Shown one piece after another: positions 814-36,705 of a stretch of 58,056 nucleotides of DNA (its first letter is position 1; each line of letters starts with the position of its first letter). Below the pieces are notes generated by a model that saw only the letters and a list, made by a program, of their open reading frames with translations, did no database searches and was not told the DNA's origin. Origin of the DNA: a virus (lineage: Duplodnaviria; Caudoviricetes); IMG/VR virus record IMGVR_UViG_3300021373_003097, positions 1-58,056 of that record; one strand, given 5' to 3'. The position numbers and the translations under genes were made by a program.

Positions 814-2688
814 ATGGCACTACCAGCAAAGCAGACCATACATACTTCAAGCTTAGACTTTGATAACATCAAGGCGAGCATCAAGGAGTACTTAAACGGT
901 CAGACAGAGTTTCAAGATTACGACTTTGAAGGGTCTGGTCTCTCTGTACTACTTGATGTACTGGCCTTCAACACTCATCAGAACGCGCTGCTGGCCAACT
1001 TTGGATTGAATGAGTCTTTTCTGACAACTGCTCAGACACGATCAAGCATGATCAATCACGCCCTAAACTTAGGATACGTACCTAGATCTAAGTCTGGCGC
1101 AAAGGCTACGGTGAACCTCTCGGTCAATCTTGCAGGCGTGTCTCCTAAACCAGCAACCATCACTATTCCAGAATTTACTTCTTTCACATCCGTAGTTGAT
1201 GGTGTAACGTATACCTTCTACACTCTAGATGAGTACATCGGATATGACAGGACCGGCACAGGAATCTATACCTTTGAGGTCAAGTCCGGAGATAAGAACA
1301 TCGTTATCTCTGAAGGCCAACTTAAGACTAAGACGTTCAAGTGTAATGACGCTGCAGAGAGACAGGTGTATGTCATTCCTGACAAGAACTTAGACATCTC
1401 TACACTCAGCGTAACGGTGTTCGACTCCCCTACATCCGAAGAGTTCGAGATCTATGAGAGAAACAACGACATTAAAGAGTACAACGAAGATACCAAGCTG
1501 TTCTTACCGGTAGAGACATATAACGGGTTCTATGAGATCAGCTTTGGTGACGGACAAGCAACGGGACGAGCTCCAGTTCCAGGTAACGTTATCAAGGCAC
1601 AATACCTTGCATCTAACGGAGTCGCTGCTAATACTGCAAACGTGTTCAGCCCAACAGATCAGATTGAAATCAACTCTCAGTCCTACAACATTATCGTGAC
1701 TACAGTATCTAGAGCAGGTCTAGGTGCAGAGAAAGAATCAGTGGAGTCTATCAGGAACAACGCCCCGTTAAATCTTCTGACTTCATCCAGATTGGTTACT
1801 TCTGGAGATTATAGAACTATCATTCAGTCTCGTATTCCTGGAATCAAGTCTGTAAACGCCTGGGGTGGAGAGGATAATGTTCCGGCAAAGTACGGTAAGG
1901 TTCTCGTGTCTCTCATCTTTGAAGATGATGTTGATGCAACTCAGAAGGCTTTGATTCAAAACACTATTACTGAAGACATTACAGACAACCTTTCAATCAT
2001 CTCAGTTGGGATGGAGTTTGTGGACCCGACATTTACATACTTAAACACTATCACTGAAGTTAAGTATGACGAGTCCTTGACAAACCGAACTCCTCAAAGT
2101 ATTGAGAACTTAGTAAAGACTAATGTATCGACATTCTTTAATAATAACTTAGGTAAGTTTAATGATGTCTTTAGAAAGTCAAAGCTGACTACTTCTATTG
2201 ACAACACTGACAATGCTATCTTATCTTCAAACGTATCGATTGAGATGGAGTCAAGATTTAATCCTGTCATTAATCCTAATACTAATCAAATCGTTTCTTC
2301 GGATTACGAGATCTCATTTGTAAATCAGATCTCACAACCGACTTCTTCTGCTCCTGTAGTTAAGAGTGACTTCTTTACATTTAAGGGTGTACTCTGTAAT
2401 ATTCAGAACAAGCTTGGATCAACTAAGCTGCAGATCTTTGATCAAGAAGGCAAGATCCGACAGGACAATGTTGGCGAGTATGTACCTGATTCCGGTAAAG
2501 TGAAGCTCAAAGGCTTTACTCCAGTGTCTATCTCAAGTGGAAACTCTTTCTTAAAGATTAAAGCTACTCCAAAAAATGATTCTACTATCAAGCCTTTAAG
2601 AAACAACGTTGTTACTTTAGGTGAAAACTTAGTTACTGCAGTGGCTGATGTAGATGCTGCTAACTCTACAGTAGGTACAACTGACTAA
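814..2688 (+). CDS. gp6: baseplate wedge subunit gp6
   Basis: LDFDNIKASIKEYL..QTEFQDYDFEGSGLSVLLDVLAFNT, FGDG, RLVTSGDY and AWGGED motifs. Confidence 0.95.
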   Translation: MALPAKQTIHTSSLDFDNIKASIKEYLNGQTEFQDYDFEGSGLSVLLDVLAFNTHQNALLANFGLNESFLTTAQTRSSMINHALNLGYVPRSKSGAKATVNLSVNLAGVSPKPATITIPEFTSFTSVVDGVTYTFYTLDEYIGYDRTGTGIYTFEVKSGDKNIVISEGQLKTKTFKCNDAAERQVYVIPDKNLDISTLSVTVFDSPTSEEFEIYERNNDIKEYNEDTKLFLPVETYNGFYEISFGDGQATGRAPVPGNVIKAQYLASNGVAANTANVFSPTDQIEINSQSYNIIVTTVSRAGLGAEKESVESIRNNAPLNLLTSSRLVTSGDYRTIIQSRIPGIKSVNAWGGEDNVPAKYGKVLVSLIFEDDVDATQKALIQNTITEDITDNLSIISVGMEFVDPTFTYLNTITEVKYDESLTNRTPQSIENLVKTNVSTFFNNNLGKFNDVFRKSKLTTSIDNTDNAILSSNVSIEMESRFNPVINPNTNQIVSSDYEISFVNQISQPTSSAPVVKSDFFTFKGVLCNIQNKLGSTKLQIFDQEGKIRQDNVGEYVPDSGKVKLKGFTPVSISSGNSFLKIKATPKNDSTIKPLRNNVVTLGENLVTAVADVDAANSTVGTTD

Positions 2689-3749
2689 TGGCTGAAACAC
2701 TCGTTGATCTTGACCGCAATGACTTAATATATAATCAACCTATAGTTGATAATGTACTGCCTCAGTACTTTCAAGATCAGTATCCGCAGTTTGTCAGCCT
2801 TTTGGATAAGTACTACGACTGGCTAAGAACGTATACAGATTCCGACGGCAGGACTCCTATAGGAGAGCTTGAGGATATTGCATACCTTAAGGACAGAGAG
2901 ATCACTCCGGAAAGATTCTTAGACTTTATCTATGATGAGCTTACAGTTGGTTTGTCCTCAGATAACTTTACTCAGTCTAGATTCTTTGCTAAGTTCTTGC
3001 CATTCTTTTATAAGACAAGAGGAACTGCAGTATCTGCTGAAGGCTTCTTAAAGTTCTTAAATGGAGATGACATCGAGCTGTCTTATCCAAAAGATCAGAC
3101 CTTTGTTGTAGGTCAGTCTGAACTTGGCTCTGAATCTTTGAGGTTCATCCAAGATTCTTATTACTATCAGATCTACTCTATCCTAGTCAAGTCTCCAGTT
3201 CCTGTTTCCGAATGGAAAGATCTCTACAAGCAGTACATTCATCCTGCCGGTTGGGAGATATTCTCAGCCCTATTCATTGAAGGTATCGCTAGCAATGTAG
3301 GCATTGTAAATCCAATGCCGACTGCTGTAGAAGAAGCCGCACCTCTCATCGTATCTAGCTTGGCTGAATTTGATGTTCAAGCGATTGGATCTAGATCCAA
3401 CATCACTGCAGTTGATGCTACTATTCAGAAGCGTATGTATGTTGACGGTGAGTACAACTACTACACTGCACAGGAAGAAATTCTGTACGATTCACCGTAC
3501 AATCAGTACAATGATCTCAGTGAGCCTCTTGATCCTAACTCAAGACTGTTCAGCTCAACTGACGATCAGACTTACCTCAACTTTAACTTGGCCAACTCTG
3601 ATGGAACTCACACCATGGATGATTCCGACAGCGCCGGCGGATCGACTATCTTTACTCTTGATAGATTGAATGTCTTTAAGACTATCGACTTCTCCAACAC
3701 TATTGAGACATTCGATGAAGCCAAATTTGATTATTACAGTGACTCTTAA
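2688..3749 (+). CDS. gp7: baseplate wedge protein, gp7-like (short form)
   Basis: LPQYFQDQYPQFVSLLDKYYDWL, FYKTRGT and IQDSYYYQIYS...HPAGW motifs; follows gp6. Confidence 0.7.
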   Translation: MAETLVDLDRNDLIYNQPIVDNVLPQYFQDQYPQFVSLLDKYYDWLRTYTDSDGRTPIGELEDIAYLKDREITPERFLDFIYDELTVGLSSDNFTQSRFFAKFLPFFYKTRGTAVSAEGFLKFLNGDDIELSYPKDQTFVVGQSELGSESLRFIQDSYYYQIYSILVKSPVPVSEWKDLYKQYIHPAGWEIFSALFIEGIASNVGIVNPMPTAVEEAAPLIVSSLAEFDVQAIGSRSNITAVDATIQKRMYVDGEYNYYTAQEEILYDSPYNQYNDLSEPLDPNSRLFSSTDDQTYLNFNLANSDGTHTMDDSDSAGGSTIFTLDRLNVFKTIDFSNTIETFDEAKFDYYSDS

Positions 3750-21091: not shown

Positions 21092-21442
21092 ATGGCTGAC
21101 CTAAACGTATTTAAAACAGTTGCACAAACAGTTGCTGATTCGAATCAACATCCTGATATAATCATCTATTCAGCTCCAGTAAACTATACTGGAATCGTGC
21201 TTTCGACTCAAGTTGCAAATGTAGATGCTGACAGCGACGTAGACTTGACATTTACTTATCACGACTCAGGTGCTGATCCAGGGACTGAGCTATTAAAAGA
21301 TTTTACTATTCCAACCGGTGATGCTACTAATGCCACTGCAGGTAAGCTTGTAGTTCAAGCTAGTCATTATTTAAAGATGAGATCTAGCAAGACGGATAGT
21401 TTAAAAGTTATATTAGGTGTACTGGAATCTTTGAATGGCTAA
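21092..21442 (+). CDS. small beta-rich virion adaptor protein
   Basis: LNVFKTV...IYSAP...QVANV...KLVV...LKVILGVLE; resembles 6119..6505. Confidence 0.65.
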   Translation: MADLNVFKTVAQTVADSNQHPDIIIYSAPVNYTGIVLSTQVANVDADSDVDLTFTYHDSGADPGTELLKDFTIPTGDATNATAGKLVVQASHYLKMRSSKTDSLKVILGVLESLNG

Positions 21443-24400
21443 AGACATCCGCCTCCTTAGCGGTAGAATCAAGACTAAAGCTCAGGATAAACTAGATCCG
21501 AGACGTACAGATTTTATAAGTCTGGATAACGTTGAACCTAACTTAGGTTCTCCGGACTCTGACTATAGAATCTCCAGCTCTCTTCAAGATGGAACTAGGT
21601 TTTGGATGACGCCTAAGGGCGGAGGTCTTAAAGTTGGCTCAGACCCAAACAACGTTACTCAACTTCAGGGTGACGAGTTAACTTTTACGATTGATACCAA
21701 TAAATTCACTCCTTTTGATAATGTAAAAAGCACTAGTACTACTCTCGCTCAGGTCTTAGATGATCTAGATTCTTCTATTGGATATGCCACTTCGATTGCT
21801 CTCTCTGCTGTTCTCGTTGACAGCAACTTTAATGGTGATGGGACTCCAGGGAAAGAGTTAAGTCTTGACAGCTCATTAGAAATCAACAGCATCACTGATG
21901 CTAGGTTTATTAGAGCCGACAGCATCGGTGACTCTAATACATTCTTTACGGGTGACGGCTCACTGCTGTTTAACCTTCCAATCGTAGACAGTGACATCGA
22001 TAGCATTGCGAGACACGCTTTAACTGGTGGATTAGGCATCAGCTACACTCCTGATGATGGTGTCATTTCTATAGATTCATTTGCTACTGGAGTTACTCTT
22101 AACGGGTTGACTGTAACTGATGATGTACTGATCAGCGGTAACTTGACTGTTACTGGTGATCAGACTATCGTTAATACTCAAGAATTAAAAGTAGACGATG
22201 CTCTTATCCAGCTTGCTGTAGGAAATGAAACGTCAGATGATGTTGACATCGGGTTCATCGGTCACTACTACAGCAACACCTATGGTGAAGTTCACACCGG
22301 TCTGTTTAGAGATGCTAGTAACCAAGAGTGGTATCTTTTCCATGAGCACATTGAATCTTCATTTGATACTGGAACCACTACAGCCGTAATTAACAGAAGT
22401 GACGTATCTCCCAGAAGCTTTAAACTAGCTGACCTTAATGTATTTGAGATCGATGCTGTAGACGGTCAGTTTGACAGTGCAACCATAACTAACGGCACAC
22501 TGACTCTCGCTACATCTGACATGACTGTCACCAATGGTGATATCTCCATGACAAATGGAGGAATCACTACAGACAGTATTCACACTACAAATTTAACAGT
22601 ATTTCATATCGACAGCGCCGACAGCGCATTTATCCGCAGATTGAGCTTTGACTCTCTGGACAGCGGAGTCGTCGTGCCGCTCTTTGCTCTGCCAGCAGAT
22701 TTCGTCGCAGCAGCCAGTGAAGATAGTATTGATTCTTCTCGTATTCCTGACCTGTACTTAAGAAACGATGGGGATGATACTACTACAGGAATCATTACGG
22801 CAAAGGGCTTTATCGGCTCTGATCTTACTATCGATGACAGCGCATATATCGATGTATCGTATATTAGAGTACTCACTGGTGATTCTGCTACGTTTAATCA
22901 GTTTACAGGTAGATTAATCGGTCTCGCTGATTCTGCTCTTAGCGCTGATAAGCTTACAGCTACTAAAACGTTCGAAGTATCAGGTGATGTAACTACAACA
23001 ACTCCGCTTCCTACATTTGATGGAACCGGTAATGTCGATATGTCGGTGTCTATTAATAATGGAGCAGTAGACTCTGATGCGCTTGGAACGGACGCTGTAG
23101 CTACAGATAAGATTCAAGACAATGCAGTAACTGCAGATAAGATTGCTCCTGGTGCTGTTGACTCTGACATTAGAGCTTTGGTTACCAAGGCGTATCTCGA
23201 TTCTGCAAATATCGATGCAGATACTCTTGACTCTTTCAATTCCAACCAATTCTTAAGATCTGATGTTGCAGATGATGTTGAAGCCGATCTTACTTTTAAG
23301 GACAATGTCCAAGCTAGATTTGGTGATGGCGGTGATCTTAAGATTTACCACGACACTATAAACAGCTTCATCTCTGAAGTAGGTACCGGTGATCTTTATA
23401 TCACTACCAACGGTCAAGAAGTACTTATCAAAGACTCTGAGAACGGTAAGCTTTCAGCTGAGTTTATTCCAGATAGTGCAGTAGATCTTTACTATAATGG
23501 TAACCTAAAGTTTGAGACCACCAATACCGGTGCTAAAGTCACTGGAATTATCGAAGCAGATTCTGGTACCCTTAACGGTAACAGAATCATCACTACTGCA
23601 GACTTTGGTGATGGTGGAGGTATCAACGCCGATGAGCTTGATGGTTTAAACTCTACTCAGTTCCTGCGCTCTGATTCAGATGACAGCATGGCCGGAACTC
23701 TGTTTATCGATGACAGTCTTTCAGCTAATAACATCACAAGAAGAAATTCTTCGGTCGTAGTTGGAACTTATGGTTCACCGACCCAGATCCCCATCGTTAA
23801 AGTTGATGCATCTGGTTTCGTTGATAGTGTGGGTATTGCTGCAGTAGCAGGTGTTGATAGTGTAGAATTTGATAGCGCTACTGGTAAGTTTACAGTATTC
23901 CTTGCTACCAACGATTCACTGTCAGCTAATATTACCCTTGATCCATTTACTACAGCAGATCTTACAGAAGATTCTACTGCACTTTACTATACAGATGCTA
24001 GAGCAGACTCTGCAGCTAGAAGTGCAATCAGCGTAGCAAATATCGGCTCAGCCTTTAATATTGGAAGCGGGCCGGTTAACAATCCAGCGTCATATGGACT
24101 TTACTATGATTCTGCCAGCGGAGTCATATCCTTTAACGGACTGGATAGCGATGACATCTTAACTGTTCTTGGAGCTACTACCAGTGAAGGTGATGGCGGT
24201 GAGACTGGAAGCAACGTAGTATTCAGTGCTGACAGTATCCAGACAAACAAACTGACAGTATTTGCCAGCTTCTTAGTAGACAACTCTTCTCTTGCTGGAA
24301 CAGACAGTGGATTCGTAGGATTCTATCATATTGATAGTGTAGACAGTGCATACATCAGAAACTTACACGTTAATACACTGACCTTTGATTCTATTGGTAC

Positions 24401-27400
24401 TACGATTCCTCTCAGCGCATTGCCTGATTCAGTTGTTTCAGCCGGAACAGATGGAACTCTAGACTCTTCGCAGATTCCAGATCTCTACTTAAGAAATGAT
24501 GGAGATGATTCTACTTCAGGAGTGATCACTGCTAAAGGATTCATTGGATCTGATCTAAGCATTGATGACAGTGCATATATCAACAACCTTCATTTAGACT
24601 CTGGATACATCGTCTTTGCTCATATCGATAGTGCGCACTTAGACATTGACAGCGCAAACATCACTACCTTGACGGGTGCATCTGCTACGTTTGATAGCCT
24701 GTTCGGCGGCTTGGATGGGTCTTACTTAAATAACAGCAGTGTCGGCAACGCCAAGTTAGCTAATTCTACTATCAGCATCTCTGACAGCAACGGCAACAGC
24801 CAGACCGTCGCCCTTGGTCAAGAAATCGCATTCTCCGAAGGTGCTGATATCGATATAGCTGTAGGCGGTACTCGTACGGTTACCATCACTAATACCAGTA
24901 CGCTTGATACAGTGACCAGTAGAGATAATTCTACCAGTAATGCTATCACTGTAGGTAACTTTAGAACTACTGGCTACATTCGTGGACCTTCTACTCTTAC
25001 AATTGATCCTGCAGATTGGGATAGTATTAGCGGTACTGTAAGAATCTTAGGTGATCTTCAAGTTGATGGTACTACCACTACAGTTAACTCGACTGAAGTT
25101 ACTATCAACGACAAGACTCTAACCTTAGCGGATAACTCTGCATCCGCCGCGGTGGCCGATGGGGCCGGCCTAATCATTGATGGAGCTAATGCTACCTGGC
25201 TCTATAAGGATATATCCGTAACCGGTTCTGACAGCGCTTGGGTGTCTAACATCAGAGTAGTCGCTCCTAGGTTTGCCGGAAACTTGGCTGCAGGATTTAT
25301 CGATACTGGAACCCTTGATGCAGATCGTATTCCAGATGACTTCTTGCAAGATGGAGACTCTGCAAACTTTAGGTTTATTGACGTTGATTCTGCCAGCATT
25401 GACTCTGCGTTTATCAGCAGGCTTTCTGGCGACTCTGCTAGATTTACAGACTTCTATGGTAACCTGACTGGTAACGTAACCGGTGATGCAGATGGTGCAG
25501 ATAGTGCAACTACTGCACTTAAGCTTAAGACGGCTAGAAATATCGCCATCTCTGGACCCGTCGCCGGCAACACAGACTTTGATGGTTCTCAGGCAATCAC
25601 TATCACTGTTACTCAGCAGAGCAACAGTGTTACCCTCGGTACTCACACCGCAGGAGACTACGTAGCATCTATCACTGCTGGTAATGGGATCATAACCAGC
25701 GGTACAACTGACAGTGAAAATAATACAGTCACCATCAGCGTAGACTCCAGTAATCTTCAGGGGCTATTTAGTGCCGGAACCGGCGTTACTATTAATAGCG
25801 GTATTATTAGTATTGGTCAGGACGTAGCTACAACTGCGGATGTAACATTTGCTAAGGTTACAGCTGACAGTGTGGTTGCCAACAACATCATTAATATTGG
25901 TGAAGCTACTACCAGAGATAAGCTGACGATCGGTGGCGCCAGTGCAGGAGACCTGTTTGGTATCACTTTAGTAGATCCAAGTACAGCCACTTCCGGTGGA
26001 CACGTTAGTTACAGGGACAGCAATGAGACTTTAACTCTAGGCAAGATTACCAGTAGCGTCAAGTCTCATGCCGTTGTTATTGACGATGACTTTGTTGGTA
26101 TCTTTAATGAGAATCCATCGGTTGAACTTGACGTAACAGGAGGCATCACCGCATCTGCTACGATTACTGCTAACCAATTCAACGGCGGCGGCAGTAACCT
26201 GACGGATCTGAATGCAGATGCACTGACTAGTGGAACTGTTGATTCTGCTAGAATCTCTGGTCCCTATCCAGGAATCACATCAGTTGGAACTCTGGATGAT
26301 GGTGAGATTTCGTCAACCTTTGGTGACATTGATATTGGAAATAGTTACTTTACAGGTGACGGTAGAAACATCACTAATCTGGATGCAGGTGAACTTATAA
26401 ACGTCACTGGAGTTGTACCAAGTAGTGTTATAAGTGGATCTTACACAGGTATCACTGAAGTTGGTGCACTAGTAGCCGGATCTATTGATAGTAACTTTGG
26501 TGCCATCAATATTGGTACATCTATTTTTACGGGTGATGGCTCAGGATTATTCAACGTCGATGCTGCAACAATCGGCGGCCTGGATCCAACAGATCTTTCT
26601 AGAATAGTTGTCACTACAAGCTCAACTGGACCAACTTCCACTGGTCAGTATGCTAAGATCGCTACTTACGGTTTAGGTGCTGGAGCTAACGGAACGTTCC
26701 TCTATGCCCTTCTTCCAGAAGGGACTGGAACTAATAACTCCGGTGCAACTATCCTTTCTGTTCAGATGTCAAAAGGAAGCCCTCACACAGCCACGGTTGA
26801 AATCATGGCAATGGGTGGACCTGCACCGTTTAATGATGACGCTTTCCGTATAGTAAACACTGGATCTGCATCCAGCCCCGAGCTTTGGATCCAGTCAAAC
26901 ATCTCCGGTGTCGTTATTCAGGTCTTTGAAATCACTAGACATCAAGACGCTATCAGTGTTACGTATAATGACGGAGCTACATGGCAGTCTACGACACCTT
27001 CTACTAACGGAACTCCCGTAATCAGTAACGGATTGACCTACAGGGGTGATCCTATCTTGACGGCTGGGGCCGACATCGATAGCGCGAATATTAACAACCC
27101 TATCATCAGCGGCGATGTCATCCTTCCTTCGGTTGTAACGTTTGATGATGGTAGCGGAGACAGCGATACCAACAGACCAGGTGGAGATACTTTACTTAAG
27201 CATGGATCTACGATCACTCAAAATACTACAAACACAGTGACCTTAGATGAAAATGATGCTACTAAAGCTGTAGGTGGAAAGTACCTGATCTCTGCCCAAA
27301 GAGGTATCGCTTCTCATATGACAGAGATCAACTTTGTAGTAGCAAATAACAACACAGTCCATGCAGCTGAATTTGGTACGGTCACTAGCTTAGGTGACTT

Positions 27401-27518
27401 GTTCTCAGTAGAGATGGATGTCTCAGGTGGAAACGTGAGACTAAGGATTACTCCGGACAATACGAGTAAAACAATATTTAAATTCAGCTCTACAGTGTTT
27501 TATGATGATGGCACATAA
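21435..27518 (+). CDS. long tail fibre protein (2027 aa)
   Basis: LDGLNSTQFLRSD-type motifs, FGDGGDLKIYHD, LQVDGTTTTVNST, ATTALKLKTARNI and internal repeats. Confidence 0.85.
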   Translation: MAKDIRLLSGRIKTKAQDKLDPRRTDFISLDNVEPNLGSPDSDYRISSSLQDGTRFWMTPKGGGLKVGSDPNNVTQLQGDELTFTIDTNKFTPFDNVKSTSTTLAQVLDDLDSSIGYATSIALSAVLVDSNFNGDGTPGKELSLDSSLEINSITDARFIRADSIGDSNTFFTGDGSLLFNLPIVDSDIDSIARHALTGGLGISYTPDDGVISIDSFATGVTLNGLTVTDDVLISGNLTVTGDQTIVNTQELKVDDALIQLAVGNETSDDVDIGFIGHYYSNTYGEVHTGLFRDASNQEWYLFHEHIESSFDTGTTTAVINRSDVSPRSFKLADLNVFEIDAVDGQFDSATITNGTLTLATSDMTVTNGDISMTNGGITTDSIHTTNLTVFHIDSADSAFIRRLSFDSLDSGVVVPLFALPADFVAAASEDSIDSSRIPDLYLRNDGDDTTTGIITAKGFIGSDLTIDDSAYIDVSYIRVLTGDSATFNQFTGRLIGLADSALSADKLTATKTFEVSGDVTTTTPLPTFDGTGNVDMSVSINNGAVDSDALGTDAVATDKIQDNAVTADKIAPGAVDSDIRALVTKAYLDSANIDADTLDSFNSNQFLRSDVADDVEADLTFKDNVQARFGDGGDLKIYHDTINSFISEVGTGDLYITTNGQEVLIKDSENGKLSAEFIPDSAVDLYYNGNLKFETTNTGAKVTGIIEADSGTLNGNRIITTADFGDGGGINADELDGLNSTQFLRSDSDDSMAGTLFIDDSLSANNITRRNSSVVVGTYGSPTQIPIVKVDASGFVDSVGIAAVAGVDSVEFDSATGKFTVFLATNDSLSANITLDPFTTADLTEDSTALYYTDARADSAARSAISVANIGSAFNIGSGPVNNPASYGLYYDSASGVISFNGLDSDDILTVLGATTSEGDGGETGSNVVFSADSIQTNKLTVFASFLVDNSSLAGTDSGFVGFYHIDSVDSAYIRNLHVNTLTFDSIGTTIPLSALPDSVVSAGTDGTLDSSQIPDLYLRNDGDDSTSGVITAKGFIGSDLSIDDSAYINNLHLDSGYIVFAHIDSAHLDIDSANITTLTGASATFDSLFGGLDGSYLNNSSVGNAKLANSTISISDSNGNSQTVALGQEIAFSEGADIDIAVGGTRTVTITNTSTLDTVTSRDNSTSNAITVGNFRTTGYIRGPSTLTIDPADWDSISGTVRILGDLQVDGTTTTVNSTEVTINDKTLTLADNSASAAVADGAGLIIDGANATWLYKDISVTGSDSAWVSNIRVVAPRFAGNLAAGFIDTGTLDADRIPDDFLQDGDSANFRFIDVDSASIDSAFISRLSGDSARFTDFYGNLTGNVTGDADGADSATTALKLKTARNIAISGPVAGNTDFDGSQAITITVTQQSNSVTLGTHTAGDYVASITAGNGIITSGTTDSENNTVTISVDSSNLQGLFSAGTGVTINSGIISIGQDVATTADVTFAKVTADSVVANNIINIGEATTRDKLTIGGASAGDLFGITLVDPSTATSGGHVSYRDSNETLTLGKITSSVKSHAVVIDDDFVGIFNENPSVELDVTGGITASATITANQFNGGGSNLTDLNADALTSGTVDSARISGPYPGITSVGTLDDGEISSTFGDIDIGNSYFTGDGRNITNLDAGELINVTGVVPSSVISGSYTGITEVGALVAGSIDSNFGAINIGTSIFTGDGSGLFNVDAATIGGLDPTDLSRIVVTTSSTGPTSTGQYAKIATYGLGAGANGTFLYALLPEGTGTNNSGATILSVQMSKGSPHTATVEIMAMGGPAPFNDDAFRIVNTGSASSPELWIQSNISGVVIQVFEITRHQDAISVTYNDGATWQSTTPSTNGTPVISNGLTYRGDPILTAGADIDSANINNPIISGDVILPSVVTFDDGSGDSDTNRPGGDTLLKHGSTITQNTTNTVTLDENDATKAVGGKYLISAQRGIASHMTEINFVVANNNTVHAAEFGTVTSLGDLFSVEMDVSGGNVRLRITPDNTSKTIFKFSSTVFYDDGT
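22602..22850 (+). repeat. intragenic repeat, copy 1 (about 85 aa; copy 2 at 24321..24581)
   Basis: IPDLYLRNDGDDTTTGIITAKGFIGSDLTIDDSAYI versus IPDLYLRNDGDDSTSGVITAKGFIGSDLSIDDSAYI. Confidence 0.9.
24321..24581 (+). repeat. intragenic repeat, copy 2
   Basis: Matches 22602..22850 in protein and partly in DNA (tacttaagaaa[c/t]gatgg[g/a]gatgat). Confidence 0.9.
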
Positions 27519-28561: not shown

Positions 28562-31120
28562 ATGACAGTTTTTACTCAAGCGTTTAACCTCAGCGATAAC
28601 GTTAAGTACATGAACTTTAAGGTTGATACTACTCCTTCTGGAGGAGGTAATGCTACTGCTAGAACTACTCTTGATGATCGTAAAGAGCTGATGCACAAGA
28701 TTCAAGAGTGGATTTCAACTGAAGTAGATAACCAGCAGATCCCAATCAATAATACTCTAGGATGGCAAAGGATTGATGGGGCTGATTCTGCAGGAGCAAT
28801 TCTTAACAACGCGGAAGGCGTCTACAATACCGGCACTGGAAATGCAGTGTATGGATTTTTAAGAGCCAAGTGTTATGACTATGATACTAGTGGACACTGG
28901 AAGTATCTTAGATTAAAGCTGTTTGAAAGAAATGAAGATGATGTTTTTGGGTCCGACGGAGTTAGATACAGGTCCGCTAACAGCGTCTTGGTTTTACGAT
29001 ACGACGTATACTCGGACTGGCCGAATATTACTGCTGAAGACTCAGCCGCGACCGTAGACTCTATCAATGGAGGGTTCAACTCAGCTGAAGCTGATGGATA
29101 CGGATCCACTGATCTTAATGCCGGGACGATCAACGGGGAGATGTATGGAACTGCGAACAATCCAATTGGATTTGATGCAGCTTATAACTCAAACTCAACT
29201 GCATTTAACAATATGGAGCATCCATCGAATAATTATATTTATTGGAAGAGGTACATGTTCGGCAACAATGGTGGTCTCCCCCGTCCAGTGTCTCGCAGCG
29301 CAATGAACTCTACTACATCTACGCTGTCCGCCAATATCGGCCTTTGGCCGGGAGACGGAAGAAAAGGGTACAGTCTCGGACATAACTTCTATCCTCATTA
29401 TTTTGGTGTCACTGGATTTGGAGACAGTGACTTGTCTAAGACTAACTCTTATGGTGAGCTCAAGCTTATCATTGATGGCAATGGAACCTTATGGGGATTT
29501 GGAGATCAAGATAATGTCGGAGCAACTGGAGTAGATAGTGCAAGTGGAACTGGTGGACACAGAGGAGTGAATGCTTCTGGTGCAAACGCCAGATACCTGT
29601 CCTTGTTTGTAAGTCAGCACCAAGACGATAACCCCGAAAGACAAGAGGAGTACAATACTATCTTGTTCGCTGGAGAGTATAAGAAAGAATTTGGTGAACC
29701 AACGGCAAGTGGATCTAACTATATTCATAATGGACTCAAGCTTAACGCTCATAACCTCCTAATGAACAATGGAGTAGCTACACCTCCTAACTACAAGTGG
29801 TTTGAACAGGCCGGACACACCGCTAACAATGATACCCAAAACCAGACACCGTCAACCACTCTTACCAGATCTTCTCTCTACTACACGTTCGCCTCCACCA
29901 CCAATAACGTTCCTAATAATTTAGCGATCAATTCAACCGCCAGTTACAACACTATAGCAAACGGAAACAACTATGCTGGTGACAATGTTAACTCTATCAG
30001 ATCGACTGTAACCAACAACACTAGTATCGTTGAAGGGATCGGGCACTCCTTGATGGGAGATCAAGTCGGTGGCAACCATAGCTTAAATATAGGACTCTAT
30101 CAGAATAGATCCAGATCTGTTGGTCTTGATGGAGACCCAGCCGAGTCAAGATGGAAGAGCGAGATGTCCGGAAACACTGCCCGAAGCACTTCTAGCAATA
30201 ACAATTGGGGCGGAGGCACCTACGCCGGTCAGCATGGTCAGAATCATACCTGGTTGGGCAATGATGGCGCTCAGTTTGCTCTAACCGAATATCCTACTAG
30301 ATCTTTCCAGGGAGGGTGGAGCGCTGGAAACAACATAACTCAAAAAGAATCTATACAGCAGTACGATAACTACACCACTCCGGCTTCCGGAAGACAGGCA
30401 CTTTCTGCTACTAGACTGCATATGGGATATCTTGGATATGTTGGTCATGAAAGCAGCAAGAAAGCTATATCTTTAAATGAAATTTTCTTTGGATCTAGAC
30501 ACGGCATGTTTGGAGACGACGGAGAAGAAGTTCAAGGTACCTTGAGTGCATACTATCCAGGTGATCCAGCGATTCCTGGAAGAGTCTCTACATTTGGACC
30601 TTCTATCCCTCTCGTATCTGATGTGTATGATTCAGCAGAAGGTAACGCTCAAGACACGTATTCCCAAAGTAGAGAGTATGTACAAGAATTTCATCCTTTA
30701 GCTAATGACCAGTCTCAATACTCAGTGTATGAGCCGGTTCTTTCAGTTGGAACCTGGAGGTCGCATGGGCAAAATGAAGCTGAGAATGCTGACTGGATAA
30801 ATGTGACGAATTCAAACGTCGTTGCAGCTATGGCCACAAACACTGCCAATGTCGCCAATAATGATGGCTTTGATCCTGATACCGGAGCATTAGGTACTCC
30901 CGGAGGAACATCAAAGTCCAACAGCGCGTTTGCCATGTTAGGTAGAACATATGGTCTTAAGATCTTTGGCCCTTATACTCACGATAAATATAACTTCTTG
31001 GATGCAGTTTCTATTCAGCTAGATAATGAAGACTTCTATGCGGTCAACCCAAACAACGCGGTTGACCACTGGGTTGTTCCAATGAATCATGATCAGTGTG
31101 CATTCTTGTTTAAAAAATAA
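28562..31120 (+). CDS. hypothetical virion protein, possible receptor-binding protein (852 aa)
   Basis: Long N/G/S/T-rich ORF in the fibre cluster; no recognisable family. Confidence 0.6.
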   Translation: MTVFTQAFNLSDNVKYMNFKVDTTPSGGGNATARTTLDDRKELMHKIQEWISTEVDNQQIPINNTLGWQRIDGADSAGAILNNAEGVYNTGTGNAVYGFLRAKCYDYDTSGHWKYLRLKLFERNEDDVFGSDGVRYRSANSVLVLRYDVYSDWPNITAEDSAATVDSINGGFNSAEADGYGSTDLNAGTINGEMYGTANNPIGFDAAYNSNSTAFNNMEHPSNNYIYWKRYMFGNNGGLPRPVSRSAMNSTTSTLSANIGLWPGDGRKGYSLGHNFYPHYFGVTGFGDSDLSKTNSYGELKLIIDGNGTLWGFGDQDNVGATGVDSASGTGGHRGVNASGANARYLSLFVSQHQDDNPERQEEYNTILFAGEYKKEFGEPTASGSNYIHNGLKLNAHNLLMNNGVATPPNYKWFEQAGHTANNDTQNQTPSTTLTRSSLYYTFASTTNNVPNNLAINSTASYNTIANGNNYAGDNVNSIRSTVTNNTSIVEGIGHSLMGDQVGGNHSLNIGLYQNRSRSVGLDGDPAESRWKSEMSGNTARSTSSNNNWGGGTYAGQHGQNHTWLGNDGAQFALTEYPTRSFQGGWSAGNNITQKESIQQYDNYTTPASGRQALSATRLHMGYLGYVGHESSKKAISLNEIFFGSRHGMFGDDGEEVQGTLSAYYPGDPAIPGRVSTFGPSIPLVSDVYDSAEGNAQDTYSQSREYVQEFHPLANDQSQYSVYEPVLSVGTWRSHGQNEAENADWINVTNSNVVAAMATNTANVANNDGFDPDTGALGTPGGTSKSNSAFAMLGRTYGLKIFGPYTHDKYNFLDAVSIQLDNEDFYAVNPNNAVDHWVVPMNHDQCAFLFKK

Positions 31121-31135
31121 AAAAAGGTCTATATA

Positions 31136-31900
31136 ATGTTTAACCTGCTAAATCGCAAGCCTATCATTGAATTTGTATCTATTGATCCTGCATATTCATA
31201 CATTCCTAAACCTGATAACTCTAGAAAATTTCTTCCAACTTGGATCAAGAGAATGAAGGAGATGACCTCTGAAGGCCAAGATAGTAGAAACCGGAAGCTA
31301 GATACTGTTAGAAAATGCGTGCCTTTTCTCGATGCAATGAAAGCGGGATATATGATTCCCGCACCTTGTGATATCTGGATAAAAGTATATAAAGAAAACA
31401 ATACGTATACAAAAGAAGTCAGGTCCTCTATTAATCTAGGAGGTGAGGTAGCCGAAGTTATAAGTGAACACGCAATACCTCAAATGAGTCCGGACTCTCC
31501 TTATAGAGGCCTGATACTTAAGTTTATTAATGCTTGGAAGATTAATACTAGGCCAGGATACTCTTGTCTTTTTATTAATCCTATTAATCATGGCAACAAA
31601 TACTTTGAATCTTTTGCTGGTGTAGTGGATACTGATAGCTACCACAATATTATTAACTTTCCGTTTAGGATTTTAAATCCAAACAATGAAGAAACGTTTG
31701 AATTTATGATCAAGAGAGGAGAGCCTATTATTCAGGTAATTCCATTTAAGAGATCTGAAGCATATGCAAAGTGCAATGTAAGAGGAGCTAAAGATTTTAA
31801 TGAATGGAAGCATGAGTTAAAAGATAAAGATTATGTTGCTGGTAATTTTTCATGGTATCGTGAGCACACTGTAGAAAAAAAGATTACTTTGGAGAAGTAA
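31136..31900 (+). CDS. DUF6065-like / dUTPase-fold-like hypothetical protein
   Basis: CVPFLDAMKAGY, KFINAWKINTRPGYSCLF, GVVDTD and IKRGEPIIQVIPFKR; AT-rich. Confidence 0.55.
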   Translation: MFNLLNRKPIIEFVSIDPAYSYIPKPDNSRKFLPTWIKRMKEMTSEGQDSRNRKLDTVRKCVPFLDAMKAGYMIPAPCDIWIKVYKENNTYTKEVRSSINLGGEVAEVISEHAIPQMSPDSPYRGLILKFINAWKINTRPGYSCLFINPINHGNKYFESFAGVVDTDSYHNIINFPFRILNPNNEETFEFMIKRGEPIIQVIPFKRSEAYAKCNVRGAKDFNEWKHELKDKDYVAGNFSWYREHTVEKKITLEK

Positions 31901-31903
31901 AAG

Positions 31904-33829
31904 TTGGCTGATAACTATCCATTCGACTCAGATAACGTACCGTACAGCGCAGTCTTTAACCAAGACTATACTGCTGACAGCGCTATAGCTGTTTCTACAC
32001 TATTTTCTACGACTACACCAGTGTCCTTGATCACTATTATTGGTGGAGCAGGTGGTACTTCTGGCGGGGTTGGCGGTACAGGTGGGTCAGTTACAACCTT
32101 AGATACTACCTATAGTGCTTCTCGGGGTTCTTACTCTGGCGGAGATGGTGGAGCTGGTGGCGGTGCTCTTGGTAATGGAGCCGGAGGTGGTGGAGCTGCA
32201 GGATACTCTGGTGCAGGTGGAGATGCTGGATCCGCTGGAACAGGTGGAGCTGGAGGAGGCGGTGGTGCTTCTACTAATCAGCTGTTACTTGGCGGTGGCG
32301 GTGTAGGTCTATTCGGTGAAGGAACATCAGGTGCTGCTGGTACTGATTCTACTGCAGCGGGCGGTGGTTCTTCCTTTACTACGATTCATGGTGATCCATA
32401 CTTAGGTAACGTTACATTACTTCTAACTGGCGATAGCACGATAACCCCAGTTAACTTTGGAAGGTCAGACGGATTCTCTGCTACATATCATAACGCCTAC
32501 CCCGATTCAGCTGGTGCCTTTACAACTGGTAAGTATGGTAGCGCATTCTCTTTCAATGGTGAAGATCAATATATTTCTTTAACCGGTGGGGATTTGTCTG
32601 GCGGTGACTGGACCATTGAGATGTGGGTTAATTATGATAGCATGACTCAATTCTCAGGGCCAATTGCTACTGATATGGATAAGGTACTACCAGCGGGTAA
32701 TACAGCAGGGGAATTTGATTTCCATATTCGAACCACAACCGCGCCTCACCGTATGTCTTTTTTCGTTAGAAATGATGGCAGTTCCCCGACAACTTTTGAT
32801 ATTGAAAATGATAGCGTAGCAATTACTGCTGGAACCTGGCACCATGTCGCAGCTTCATTTGTATCCTCTACTAATACTATATATGTAGGTGTTGACGGTA
32901 CAGTGTCCTCGAGTACGAACGCTGCATTTGCAAGTATTTCATTAGGTGCTGAAGATGCGCTTCAGATTGGCAAAAATAGAACTAACAACCAATTTTTTAA
33001 TGGTCAGATCGATGATATACGGTTAACCAAAGGTGTAGCACGATATACCTCTAGCTATACGGTACCCGCAGCAGCGCATTCTTCAGCACCTGGGGCTAGT
33101 GGAACGGATGGGTTTATTGATAGTGATGGTGCGCTGCTTAATTTTTCTTCAGCCCCCACCGGCACAATCAATGTTATTGACTATTCTACTGCTCCTGTAA
33201 CCAGTGGATTGATCATACATCTTGATGCGGGAGTAACTTCATCATACCCTGGTTCTGGATCAACATGGTACGACATTACTGCAAACAACAATGATTTTAC
33301 TCTTACTAACAGTCCGACTTATTCAAGCGCCAACGGGGGCAAGTTTCAGTTTAATGGTACTAATCAGTATGCCACCGGAGGGCCAAACCTAAGTACGTCT
33401 AACTGTACAACTATTGCTATTCAAAGGTATGCTACTAATAACAATAGCGCTAGAGGTAGAGTTACTGCCGGTAATGCTAACAACTGGCTCTTGGGCATAT
33501 GGGGTAATAATACATCAGTTTACTACGCTAATGGATGGCTTACTCCTACCAATACCGGAACTGATACTGACTGGCACATTCATGCTGGTACTGAAAACTA
33601 CAGTGGCGATTCTAGAGTTTTGTATGATAACAATGCTGTGGTTTCCGGGCAGACTGCTAGCGGTGGTTCTCAGGGACCAAATGGGTTTTCCATAGGTAGA
33701 TGGGGGGCTGGAAGTAGTGAGTATTCAGATTGTGAAGTAGCAGTGCTTCTAGTTTATAACAGGGTGCTTAGTACAACCGAGTTAACTACTATATTCGATT
33801 TCTATAAAAGTAGATTTGGAATTTCTTAA
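31904..33829 (+). CDS. virion protein with a partial Gly-rich domain and two LamG/concanavalin A-like domains (TTG start)
   Basis: DWTIEMWV...WHHVA...FNGQIDDIRLTKGVARY; second domain GLIIHLDAG..SYPGSGSTWYD...VYNRVLS. Confidence 0.8.
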   Translation: MADNYPFDSDNVPYSAVFNQDYTADSAIAVSTLFSTTTPVSLITIIGGAGGTSGGVGGTGGSVTTLDTTYSASRGSYSGGDGGAGGGALGNGAGGGGAAGYSGAGGDAGSAGTGGAGGGGGASTNQLLLGGGGVGLFGEGTSGAAGTDSTAAGGGSSFTTIHGDPYLGNVTLLLTGDSTITPVNFGRSDGFSATYHNAYPDSAGAFTTGKYGSAFSFNGEDQYISLTGGDLSGGDWTIEMWVNYDSMTQFSGPIATDMDKVLPAGNTAGEFDFHIRTTTAPHRMSFFVRNDGSSPTTFDIENDSVAITAGTWHHVAASFVSSTNTIYVGVDGTVSSSTNAAFASISLGAEDALQIGKNRTNNQFFNGQIDDIRLTKGVARYTSSYTVPAAAHSSAPGASGTDGFIDSDGALLNFSSAPTGTINVIDYSTAPVTSGLIIHLDAGVTSSYPGSGSTWYDITANNNDFTLTNSPTYSSANGGKFQFNGTNQYATGGPNLSTSNCTTIAIQRYATNNNSARGRVTAGNANNWLLGIWGNNTSVYYANGWLTPTNTGTDTDWHIHAGTENYSGDSRVLYDNNAVVSGQTASGGSQGPNGFSIGRWGAGSSEYSDCEVAVLLVYNRVLSTTELTTIFDFYKSRFGIS

Positions 33830-33843
33830 GGGATAGATAACTA

Positions 33844-34865
33844 ATGTCTGATAAGGGTTTATATGGTGGAGGTGGCGGTTCAGCCGCATCTAGTGCTTCC
33901 TTAGTAGTAAAGGTGGTCACGGCCAGCGTGGTGCTGTAAGAATCATTTATCCTACTCCAAGTGGACAGAGTGACACTACTACTATTCTTGATAGAGGATT
34001 GCCTGCTCTCGCTGAATCTGTTTCTGTTAATCCAGGTGGACACCTTTACACAACTACAGGTACCCATACATTTACTGTTCCTACTGGCGTTACGTCTATC
34101 ACTGCTGTTGCTGTTGGTGCAGGTGGAGGAGGAGGAGGTTCTACGGGATCTACTGGTAGTACTCGAGCTGCTGGCGGCGGCGGAGCGCTTTATTATGCTA
34201 ATGCGATATCTGTTACCCCAGGAGAATCTTTAACAGTAGTCGTCGGCACTAGAGGTTCTGGTGGTGGAACTGGAGGTAGTGGGAGTAACGGAGGAAACTC
34301 GAGTATTGCAAGAGGAGGTACTACTCTTCTTTTAGCTGAAGGTGGTGATGGCGGCACTACATCAGCAGTTAATGGTGGTTTAACGTCGAATTGTATTGGT
34401 GATGGTGGCGGTAATGGTGGAGGCGGTAGTATTTCGACCAGCGCCGGTACCGGAGGAGGCGGAGCTGGAGGTTATAGCGGATCTGGTGGTGCGGCGAACA
34501 GCGCAGGATCTGGCGGCGGCGGTGGAGGCGGTAGTCGTAGGCTTTCTGACCAAAGAACTGGTGGTGGTGGCGGAGTTGGCGTCTACGGTGAAGGCGCTAG
34601 TGGCGGCGCCTCGTCGACGAGTAGCGTCAGCGGCCGGGGAGGTTCAGACGGAAATGGTGGTGGGGTCTCCGCCGCCGGCGCTGGTGGAGCCTATGGTGGC
34701 GGCGGTGGATCACGATTTGATGATGGTTCTGCAGGCGGTGGGGCCAATGGAGCTCATGGCGCCGTAAGAATTATTTGGGGTACTGAAATTACTAGATCAT
34801 TCCCTACAACCAATGTCGCTGTTAGTACAACATACACAAACGGCGAATCCGAGTCGTTAAATTAA
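33844..34865 (+). pseudogene. Gly-rich domain virion protein interrupted by a -1 frame change near 33894-33903
   Basis: ATG at 33844 gives MSDKGLYGGGGGSAASSAS, stopping at 33939. The motif continues in the -1 frame (SSKGGHGQRGAVRIIYP...), which is open from 33894 to 34865 and contains the listed ORF 33999..34865. Confidence 0.65.
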
Positions 34866-34876
34866 GGAATAAGTAA

Positions 34877-35974
34877 TTGGCTTTAAAGTTTCCAGATTCA
34901 GCAGATTCAGCCGACTTAGCGGCAGCAGGCTACAGCCAGGTTATTATTCTGGGTGGTGGGGACTCGACTGCTACAACCTGGACTATTCCTGAAGGCGTAG
35001 ACTCGTTTAGCATTATGGCTATTGGAGCAGGTGGAGCTGCAGGTTACTCTAATTCTACTAGTGCAGGAGGCGGTGGAGGAGGCGGAGGTCTTGCCTACCT
35101 GAACAATATCGCAGTCACACAGGGTGATCAAGAAATCATCTCTATTACTGTAGGTGGTGGGCAGCTAGGTGTGGGAGCCAATTCTGATGGCGGTGATGCT
35201 ACTGACCTAACTGTTACTATGAATCTCACTACTGCCAATCCAGCATTAAACTTATCCGGATATAACATAAATCCATATGGCCAGCAAGAGTTTTTAGATG
35301 CAGATTCAGATGCAAAGGCAATCATGTATATTGGAGCAGCTAGACTCGCTCCTTCGGCATCTAATCTTTTTGATTCATATCCAACTCTCAACCTGATATT
35401 CGATGATAGTGCTTCGTCTACAGCAGATCAGTTTGTATATGTTCAGCCAACTGGATCCTTTGGCACTGCATATCCATTCTCCGTGGGAGTAGATGGAGCG
35501 CAGACGCTATTTGATATTGCAAATGAAGGTGCATTCTCAAGAATTCAATCTTTAGCTGAACCAGATCCAAATACAACAAACAGGTGGGGATATAACCCAG
35601 CGACTTTTAACTACGCTTCTGATCCTAGTACGTACCTTTTCAAGAGAACAGACACCTTGGCTCATCTAGGGACTGACAGTGACCTGTATATTCCTCAAAG
35701 CATTCTTGATGCTGGATTTGCAACTTTAGATGATCAGCCAACAACAGTTTTAGGTACAATCGATTCATTTGATGTTGGAGGAGGAGCCTTTACTCTGTTC
35801 AGCATTTCTAGTGCAATCCAGTCTATTCAGATTGGAAATTTACCAGGACAATCTCCTTATGTTGATAGCGGTGGCACAATCATCATCAGTGCTGTACAAG
35901 ATCCATCGGATTATCAAGGATACGGCCCACCTGACTTAAGACAGATTCTAATTGAAAAAAATCTTACTCCGTAG
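34877..35974 (+). CDS. virion protein carrying the N-terminal third of a Gly-rich domain plus an unknown domain (TTG start)
   Basis: WTIPEGVDSFSIMAIGAGG...GGGGGGLAYLNNIAVTQGD; RBS AAGGA. Confidence 0.7.
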   Translation: MALKFPDSADSADLAAAGYSQVIILGGGDSTATTWTIPEGVDSFSIMAIGAGGAAGYSNSTSAGGGGGGGGLAYLNNIAVTQGDQEIISITVGGGQLGVGANSDGGDATDLTVTMNLTTANPALNLSGYNINPYGQQEFLDADSDAKAIMYIGAARLAPSASNLFDSYPTLNLIFDDSASSTADQFVYVQPTGSFGTAYPFSVGVDGAQTLFDIANEGAFSRIQSLAEPDPNTTNRWGYNPATFNYASDPSTYLFKRTDTLAHLGTDSDLYIPQSILDAGFATLDDQPTTVLGTIDSFDVGGGAFTLFSISSAIQSIQIGNLPGQSPYVDSGGTIIISAVQDPSDYQGYGPPDLRQILIEKNLTP

Positions 35975-35975
35975 T

Positions 35976-35983
35976 TATAAATA
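35976..35983 (+). promoter_or_regulatory. T4-type late promoter
   Basis: Exact TATAAATA. Confidence 0.85.
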
Positions 35984-36010
35984 ATTAGCCAATAAGAGGA
36001 GTGTATTCGA

Positions 36011-36667
36011 ATGGCTTTGACTTTAGACACTTTTAACACAAATGCATATGTAGCTTCCGCTACTACTCTTGCAAATAGAGATGAATATCATTATTTGGTA
36101 AGAGCTGTGCCTGATGAAAATTTTAAGAAAACCATCAAGAGAATATTTAACAAGCCTTTATCTACTAGAGGAGGTGCACTTGGAGATTCTGGAGAGACAT
36201 GGCACATTGTAGTTGCGGCTGACCCAAATCTTGACTCTTCAATAGAAAGTACAGAAGCCTTTAAAGTGTGGTCTTCGCCTAGACTTGTAGTTAAGGAAGG
36301 TATATATGTAGAATCAGATGGTTCCAATCCTATGGACCTCGGCCCAGATGTAGACGAGTTTTTAACTAGAGATCTAGCAGTTGGCCATTCTGACTCCATG
36401 AATTCTGGACATATCTTAGATATAAAAGAAGTATTTGGAGATTCTGCATGGCGAGCACATCCGGATCTGTCTCACTTCTTTGATGCCTCTGGATTCTATA
36501 GATATGATGATACAGCATCAGAGTGGATTGCCGGCTTAATTGGCTTAGAAGAAGTGGATTCTTCCTCTATTTTAAGCATGGTTTCTTCTAGAGAACTTTT
36601 ATTAGGAGAGAATGCTCCTAGTTGGGTAACTGAAGCTTCTAGTGATAGTGCCGCTGATAGCGCGTAG
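36011..36667 (+). CDS. hypothetical late protein
   Basis: Own late promoter and GAGGAG RBS; acidic and DS-rich. Confidence 0.7.
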   Translation: MALTLDTFNTNAYVASATTLANRDEYHYLVRAVPDENFKKTIKRIFNKPLSTRGGALGDSGETWHIVVAADPNLDSSIESTEAFKVWSSPRLVVKEGIYVESDGSNPMDLGPDVDEFLTRDLAVGHSDSMNSGHILDIKEVFGDSAWRAHPDLSHFFDASGFYRYDDTASEWIAGLIGLEEVDSSSILSMVSSRELLLGENAPSWVTEASSDSAADSA

Positions 36668-36668
36668 T

Positions 36669-36676
36669 TATAAATA
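36669..36676 (+). promoter_or_regulatory. T4-type late promoter
   Basis: Exact TATAAATA before gp13. Confidence 0.85.
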
Positions 36677-36705
36677 TATGTAACTAGCCCTTAAGAGGAA
36701 GAAGA

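Follow-up and report, generated by a model that had tools for sequence, protein, structure and literature searches.

Genes A, B and C lie consecutively on the + strand of a 58-kb stretch of viral DNA (58,056 nucleotides, IMG/VR record IMGVR_UViG_3300021373_003097; hereafter the window) that codes for the structural module of a T4-like myovirus. We found that the N-termini of A and B carry complementary parts of one glycine-rich domain, and that this coding of one domain by two genes, each with its own start, is shared by 20 of 20 related contigs. Judged from the sequence comparisons, the division is functional rather than a product of decay, and we favour, as the probable explanation, that the N-terminus of B completes the domain of A in trans. 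The initial annotation of the window had described a copy of the domain that was split in three, in permuted order, over A, B and C. The distribution of one domain over separate genes was borne out for A and B; C as the third piece is only one of the admissible tilings.

Complementary parts of one domain in genes A and B

Gene A (31904..33829, + strand; delimited by its open reading frame (ORF), Pfam matches and orthologues) encodes 641 amino acids from a TTG start and comprises an N-terminal peptide, a glycine-rich core and two LamG-type modules. The peptide, residues 1–31 (31904..31996), is free of glycine, has many invariant positions in alignments and was not aligned to our own hidden Markov model (HMM) of the domain family; a variable threonine-rich stretch follows at residues 32–40. 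Residues 41–157 (32024..32374) form the polyglycine core of the split domain, which we call the socket. By hhalign, residues 89–152 of A fall on residues 149–213 of an intact copy of the domain encoded further downstream in gene B, with a probability of 97.6%. Residues 42–157 match our family HMM with 22.7–28.6 bits, and the similarity of A to the intact copy has a z score of 9.8 against 200 shuffles. The core does not include the closing hairpin and strand of the domain. Its ratio of nonsynonymous to synonymous substitution rates (dN/dS) is 0.17–0.28, with dS values of 0.41–1.17. Behind the core lie swappable lectin-like modules (32555..33826; Pfam, tblastn): residues 218–375 are a Laminin_G_3 domain in Pfam, and residues ~408–641 gave tblastn matches to phage proteins annotated as LamG-like. 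The glycine-rich N-terminal part and the LamG domains noted earlier for this gene were confirmed.

The segment that is missing from A was found at the beginning of B. Residues 1–36 of B (33844..33950, + strand; HMM, Pfam) consist of the last glycine hairpin (YGGGGGS ... GGHGQRG) and the closing strand AVRIIY, here termed the plug. On our family HMM the plug covers positions 252–284 with 28.8–29.5 bits, and A reaches positions ~237–244, so that the two matches are complementary. The comparison of the B piece to the intact copy gave a z score of 4.9 against 200 shuffles. Among five relatives, 47 of 55 alignment columns of the B N-terminus are invariant; the dN/dS of the plug, 0.07–0.76, derives from very few changes. 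A conserved linker of 18 amino acids, PTPSGQSDTTTILDRGLP (33951..34004, + strand; alignment, blastn breakpoints, contig loose ends), connects the plug to the head of B.

A word-based protein search with the A module was dominated by low-complexity words (one match among 8000 scored candidates), and an exhaustive profile search was used instead. It identified five proteins among 1.84 billion representatives, all of which carry the A module N-terminally, at residues 1–182, and none of which has the closing strand.

Each of the three genes has a Shine-Dalgarno-like motif and a start codon of its own, as the initial annotation had proposed: GGAG, 9 nucleotides and TTG for A; AAGGG and ATG for B; AAGGAA and TTG for C. 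At the border of A and B these signals form a junction cassette (33827..33843, + strand; sequence pattern, relatives) in which the TAA stop codon of A overlaps an AAGG(G/A) ribosome-binding site (RBS). A further TAA lies in the frame of B, one codon ahead of its ATG. The cassette pattern occurs in the window only at 33827 and 34863, against 0.12 occurrences expected by chance.

The division is conserved among related contigs

Viral and metagenome collections were searched with A, B and C and, after removal of duplicates, 20 contigs besides the window were found to carry the B piece. One spurious high-GC match (L050) was left out of the counts. In 20 of 20 contigs (21 genes, as L039 has two) the B piece begins a protein after a stop codon, an RBS and an ATG. 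The B frame, read from stop to stop, begins with LMS in every one of these genes and has GGHGQRG(A/G)VRI at residue 25, and the piece is fused to an upstream glycine core in 0 of 20. An A-type gene is present upstream of B in all 15 contigs with enough DNA (its N-terminus is present in 13 and cut by the contig end in two); the remaining six have at most 1241 nucleotides upstream of B. Downstream, a C-type gene follows in 15 of 21 contigs, the window included, and the other six end soon after B. The order A, B, C is kept in 15 contigs. Looked for in related phages, as the initial annotation had suggested, the split between A and B was thus found again.

The window, L014, L020, L032, L038 and L040 have a frame offset of −1 from A to B, and L015 and L045 one of +1. 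Since this offset differs between contigs and a stop codon lies in the B frame, B must be started independently; a programmed frameshift or read-through from A into B was considered and is ruled out on the same grounds.

A one-nucleotide error in gene B

As printed, gene B is read in two frames, 33844–33939 and 33894–34865, one frame apart. A TTT run at 33901–33902 is one T short in the window, a deletion that falls inside the plug; this T is present in 5 of 5 aligned relatives. Sequencing run X1, with 91% of the sampled words, has two contigs that span the site; both have the extra T, at 13.4 of 13.4 depth, and one of them is identical to the window over 33724–33936 apart from it. The extra T accounts for 9.54 of 9.54 depth in run X2, 31.8 of 52.9 in X3 and 75.3 of 103.9 in X4; these allele depths are contig-level and leave room for a rare allele with two T. 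The independent contig L039 has, at 1559–2577, 98% DNA identity to window 33861–34878 and is open there, with a frame of 341 codons. Because the T is present in relatives and contigs and L039 is open, we consider B to be one gene (33844..34865, + strand; ~340 amino acids with the missing T allowed for, as in relatives) and the break inside it to be a sequence error. What had been annotated as the last third of the domain, starting at 33844, is indeed the end of the domain (Pfam positions 194–225), and only the single open frame ascribed to it does not exist in the printed sequence. Mapping of contigs, which addresses the misassembly raised beforehand as a reason to discard the split, revealed this one-nucleotide error and no misassembly.

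The intact domain and its fold

The head of B in the window is an intact Gly_rich_2 domain, of the tumour necrosis factor (TNF)-like plus polyglycine type (34050..34778, + strand; Pfam, AlphaFold2, structure search), in agreement with the intact domain initially noted in the frame 33999..34865. It covers positions 1–225 of 226 of PF21722 with 29.9 bits, above the family cut-off of 24.3, and is thus a member of the family. The AlphaFold2 model (predicted local distance difference test score, pLDDT, 87.1; predicted template modelling score 0.88) is most similar to the Pam3 fibre protein gp24 (7ypx_A; Z 20.3, root-mean-square deviation 2.6 over 189 residues, 30% identity). It also resembles the Bxb1 tail-tip protein (Z 15.4) and the TNF-like/glycine-rich domain of ALK/LTK (Z 8–10, ~131–138 aligned residues). 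The model of the intact copy has the beta-sandwich and the lattice of extended glycine hairpins that characterise the fold. The Pam3 report describes a TNF-like sandwich whose loops are extended into a lattice of glycine-rich motifs, with the first and last glycine loops at its centre and the distal tips proposed to bind the receptor (PMC9608196). The plug of B corresponds to the last loop and closing strand of Gly_rich_2. As the first and last loops are central in the Pam3 lattice, A without the hairpin of B would miss a central element.

Gene C

Gene C (34877..35974, + strand; ORF, homologues) encodes 365 amino acids from a TTG start and has 10 homologues besides the window's own protein. 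The B|C junction cassette TAAGGAATAAGTAATT (34863..34878, + strand), recognised by its sequence pattern, precedes it and also occurs at the borders of the two B genes and of the second B gene and C in L039. Alignment and dS values define residues 1–28 (34877..34960, + strand) as a near-invariant N-terminal peptide, MALKFPDSADSADLAAAGYSQVIILGGG: 25 of 36 columns are invariant, all within these residues, and in relatives variable modules are inserted directly after them.

Residues ~31–114 (34967..35215, + strand; Pfam, hhalign, dN/dS) comprise no more than the first part of a Gly_rich_2 domain. They match positions 4–88 of the 226 of PF21722 with 33.6–36.3 bits, which agrees with the first third that had been annotated here, and have a z score of 7.9 against the intact copy (200 shuffles). 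In an hhalign comparison of the C family with the Gly_rich_2 family only residues 32–85 of C were aligned, on residues 22–77 of the intact copy, and the C-terminus of C received no support there as a source of the closing strand. The dN/dS of the partial domain is 0.16–0.43. These values, together with those of the A core, indicate that the pieces are not decaying; the degeneration (dN/dS near 1) named beforehand as a reason to discard the split was not seen. The C-terminal region (35216..35971, + strand; alignment) is always contiguous with the partial domain and has no Pfam family and no PHROG function. The AlphaFold2 model of C (15 sequences, a shallow alignment; pLDDT 32.7) was unusable, and ESM Atlas contains no model of C.

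Relatives of C keep the 28-residue N-terminus and the C-terminal unit. What separates the two is a LamG-like module, a full glycine domain with LamG, or no module at all. In seven contigs (L014, L015, L018, L019, L020, L034 and L040) the C piece lies 305–620 residues from the N-terminus, and in this it is unlike the N-terminal pieces of A and B. The initial statement that each piece is close to a protein N-terminus therefore holds for A and B everywhere, and for C only in its short forms. We also considered the 28-residue peptide of C as the missing first strands of the domain; at 0.9 bits on the profile this is an unsupported guess.

Conserved DNA at the module borders

Similarity to relatives ends at 34004, the end of the linker, which marks a module breakpoint (contig loose ends 34003–34004). 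The blastn alignments with L012, L032 and L038 extend no further than 34004, and the one with L039 starts at 33861. Contig depth is highest over 33864–34003, where contigs have loose ends at either side, and the block 33864–34004 is common to many phage genotypes whose flanks differ. Depth over 33864–34004 is several-fold up in runs X3 and X4, and contigs break at both edges. The dS of plug plus linker is 0.08–0.34 and that of the first 28 codons of C is 0.05–0.28; for the neck gene of the same pairs dS is saturated or above 1.3. Phages that have otherwise diverged are near-identical in the DNA of plug, linker and junction cassettes, so that these probably also act as recombination points for the exchange of heads.

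The heads themselves vary among relatives. Those of A may be nothing, two LamG modules, a fibrinogen-C-like module, LamG with Gly_rich_2 or an unknown module, and those of B are several Gly_rich_2 types or an unknown module of 420 residues. Contig L039 carries two tandem B-type genes (1539–3640; frames of 341 and 355 codons), the first of which is 98% DNA-identical to B of the window; their plugs and linkers are alike, their Gly_rich_2 heads differ and a junction cassette lies between them. The second LamG-like module of A recurs with 67–80% identity in other phage contigs, either as a gene of its own or at the end of other proteins, and three such loci (L004:830–1546, L005:1–558 and L006:2–274) adjoin terminase genes. 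Contigs L004–L011, which had been found via the LamG end of A, share that module alone, in other contexts, and were rejected as relatives.

A model for assembly and its alternatives

The position of A and B between the baseplate and fibre genes and a gp13-like neck gene leads us to infer a location of their products in the virion. In the assembly that we favour, A and B, translated separately, would be receptor-binding (tail-fibre) proteins in an uncultured marine T4-like myovirus, and their conserved N-termini would jointly form one TNF-like/polyglycine domain of the Pam3 gp24 (Gly_rich_2) type. Residues 1–157 of A would supply the strands of the sandwich and most of the glycine lattice, ending ahead of the last hairpin and closing strand, and residues 1–36 of B would be that hairpin and strand, followed by the 18-residue linker. 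The N-terminal peptide of B would insert into the incomplete domain of A like a plug into a socket, in a manner comparable to donor-strand complementation, and so tether B to A. One hub could then show two heads, the LamG or fibrinogen-like modules of A and the Gly_rich_2 or other module of B, and phages with two B genes could load alternative heads. Physical complementation of A by B is what we infer from the sequences.

Several observations weigh against this assembly. In Pfam, the plug (in its unbroken version from relatives) matches positions 194–225 of 226 with 14.2 bits, under the cut-off of 24.3, and the glycine-rich module of A is unreported at E values up to 10. A and B are ~240–390 nucleotides apart in seven contigs (L018, L019, L034, L035, L039, L041 and L043), and an ORF of ~100–125 amino acids fills the gap in the four contigs examined (L034, L035, L039 and L041); such an ORF is absent from the window. 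Because the register of residues 1–88 of A is ambiguous, it is uncertain that A misses only the end of the domain. Finally, the low dS of the plug (0.08–0.34) could mean a role as recombination linker and not structural constraint. An explanation without any trans-assembly builds on this last point: the A module would be shortened but self-sufficient, the N-termini of B and C would anchor these proteins independently, on the baseplate or another fibre, their near-identical DNA would be recombination linkers, and the likeness of the plug to a domain end would be the trace of an old cassette cut. Phage receptor-binding proteins usually have a conserved N-terminal anchor and then variable heads, which fits this explanation, as do the dS of 0.05–0.34 in the plug and the C N-terminus while the neck gene is saturated, the depth peak at 33864–34003 with its loose ends on both sides, the blastn breakpoints at 34004 and the identical junction cassettes at several gene borders. 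We nevertheless hold it to be unlikely, if worth serious consideration, as the segment missing from A is exactly what B begins with and an anchor role leaves the choice of a glycine hairpin and closing strand unexplained. Moreover, the plug retains the near-invariant residues of the family (the YGGGGG motif and G..V-R-I-I), and no A-type protein with a closing strand of its own was found in the exhaustive search of 1.84 billion representatives. Errors of sequencing or assembly as the source of the breaks, or pseudogenes left by rearrangement, are highly improbable. The break inside B is truly an error (the missing T at 33901–33902), but 20 independent contigs, drawn from several studies, show the A|B and B|C borders again with their stop, RBS and start, which refutes an artefact at both borders, and the dN/dS of the pieces is 0.16–0.43. 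Remnants of rearrangement, the alternative offered in the initial annotation, can be rejected because the break is conserved in 20 of 20 contigs, the pieces are under purifying selection, and conserved N-termini stand ahead of swapped modules.

Completion of A by B in trans may take a wider form, in which residues 32–114 of C, 41–157 of A and 3–37 of B fold as one three-chain domain that shows three sets of heads. Internally, the domain repeats a unit of one strand and then a GGxGG hairpin, and for this reason any overlap of the pieces depends on the register. Hmmalign places the C, A and B pieces on residues 22–104, 108–216 and 229–262 of the intact copy, without overlap and with 235 residues against 241. 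By Smith-Waterman alignment, residues 26–157 of A fall on 62–216, with ~40 residues of overlap with C, and A of L014 takes a third register on the family HMM; the three registers score about equally (means 40–47). The initial claim of non-overlapping pieces that together make up one domain is hence true in the hmmalign register and fails in the Smith-Waterman register. The three-chain form draws on the non-overlapping tiling, on the conserved order of A, B and C in 15 contigs, and on the hairpin units, of which the intact domain has three at its N-terminus, the C piece two and A one. Residues 1–40 of A have no glycine hairpin, and the C piece has the full first hairpin. The failure of AlphaFold2 to fold C alone (pLDDT 32.7) points weakly in the same direction, given the shallow alignment. 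Set against these points are the equal-scoring registers with overlap, the invariable joining of the C piece to the conserved C-terminal 250 residues of C itself, its location 305–620 residues inward in seven contigs, and the conserved N-terminal element of C, which is a different, 28-residue peptide. We therefore think the three-chain form doubtful; as a subset of completion in trans, it is not exclusive of the two-chain reading. Equally doubtful to us is the broadest version, in which A, B and C would be a natural split-domain docking system with pieces coded in permuted order, each chain bearing an exchangeable lectin-like head, and the hyper-conserved DNA of plug and cassettes would provide the recombination sites for head swapping and host range.

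Relation to known systems

In the donor-strand complementation of chaperone-usher pili, an incomplete beta-sandwich receives its last strand from the N-terminal extension of the next subunit. The mapping of A and B on the family HMM would suit such an arrangement, subject to the ambiguous register of the first 88 residues of A. The likeness of A and B to this system is an analogy and not a homology; pilins are Ig-like, and a glycine hairpin would here be donated besides the strand. The tailspikes of CBA120 and gp63.1/gp66 of G7C form branched receptor-binding complexes; the genes lie side by side, and each protein docks by a conserved N-terminal part and bears a head that can be exchanged. The adaptors in those phages are complete domains that bind each other, whereas the docking parts of A and B look like fragments of one domain.

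Among glycine-rich proteins, the tail fibre gp24 of cyanophage Pam3 (PDB 7YPX/7YFW) has the same fold as the intact copy, a beta-sandwich bearing a lattice of glycine hairpins, and carries it at the end of the myovirus fibre that binds the receptor (PMC9608196). Unlike the A/B copy, which is N-terminal, divided over two genes and followed by lectin-like modules, gp24 is a single chain with an N-terminal helical anchor and a C-terminal domain. The adhesin gp38 of Salmonella phage S16, a polyglycine II sandwich, likewise uses a glycine lattice for host recognition and is, according to the same source, a separate small protein that docks on another fibre protein (PMC9608196). It differs in that it docks by its own N-terminal domain on the tip of gp37 and has its glycine domain complete in one chain; we obtained no sequence or fold match to gp38. 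The extracellular TNF-like/glycine-rich (TG) domain of ALK/LTK shares the fold class of the intact copy (Z 8–10), but belongs to the single-chain ectodomain of an animal receptor kinase, and the relation is structural only. These known TNF-like/polyglycine receptor-binding devices (Pam3 gp24, S16 gp38 and the ALK family) are all single-chain. The nearest concept in a T4-like phage is NrdA of Aeh1, a fragmented protein whose two separately translated parts are reported to reassemble (PMC3045599). A and B are similar to it in having one domain in two separately translated parts, which may reassemble. The Aeh1 case concerns an enzyme, and its split is reported to stem from the insertion of a homing endonuclease; we identified no endonuclease here, and the split is at the start of modular fibre proteins. 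A search of the published literature found no paper on a split glycine-rich fibre domain, with subscription journals mostly outside the search and supplementary files not included.

If A and B do assemble as proposed, they would represent a new way to build a branched fibre from two genes, perhaps three, in which the docking element is a shared fold and not a pair of adaptor domains. The exchange of heads at fixed junctions in abundant uncultured marine T4-like phages would likewise be explained. The plug and socket, of 36 and ~157 residues, would be a small natural pair and a candidate tool for protein assembly.

Genomic setting and neighbouring genes

The structural module in the window includes genes for baseplate wedge, fibre-like proteins, terminase, sheath, portal and major head protein, as well as gp13/gp14/gp15-like neck and sheath-stabiliser proteins. 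A, B and C are flanked by large fibre-like genes on one side and by the gp13-like neck gene on the other; the corresponding place in T4 encodes the short fibres and whiskers. The sequencing runs that contain the region are labelled as seawater or marine metagenomes. A collection of cultured phages gave no DNA match to window 31000–36700 and, in tblastn with the low-complexity filter on, no match with B or C; tblastn with A matched in its LamG parts only. The gp13 of the window is at most 47% identical to those of cultured phages.

Upstream of A, two large ORFs of 2027 and 852 amino acids (21435–27518 and 28562–31120) have no Pfam or PHROG match, and the 852-residue protein is conserved upstream in related contigs (L014, L018 and L020). 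Directly 5' of A, a DUF6065-like gene (31136–31900; PF19541 with 25.9 bits, just below the cut-off of 26.6; phrog_7084) is also present in syntenic relatives. As a guess, its product may modify fibre proteins. Read-through from this gene into A was rejected, since the two share a frame in the window and not in L014. A gene of 243–249 amino acids, a possible relative of the DUF6065-like gene, adjoins fibre genes in L006 and L012 too.

The ORFs in the A–B gap are at L034:2610–2995, L035:2630–2995, L039:1300–1535 and L041:2610–2920, and begin with MAHYAFLDS in L034 and L035. A 98-residue part of the one in L034 matched no Pfam family. B and C have an additional gene between them at L018:4782–5684 (301 amino acids) and at L020:3493–4410 (a frame of 306 codons). 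The Gly_rich_2 match of the extra gene in L018 starts from profile position 16, so that it begins at the strand before the first glycine run.

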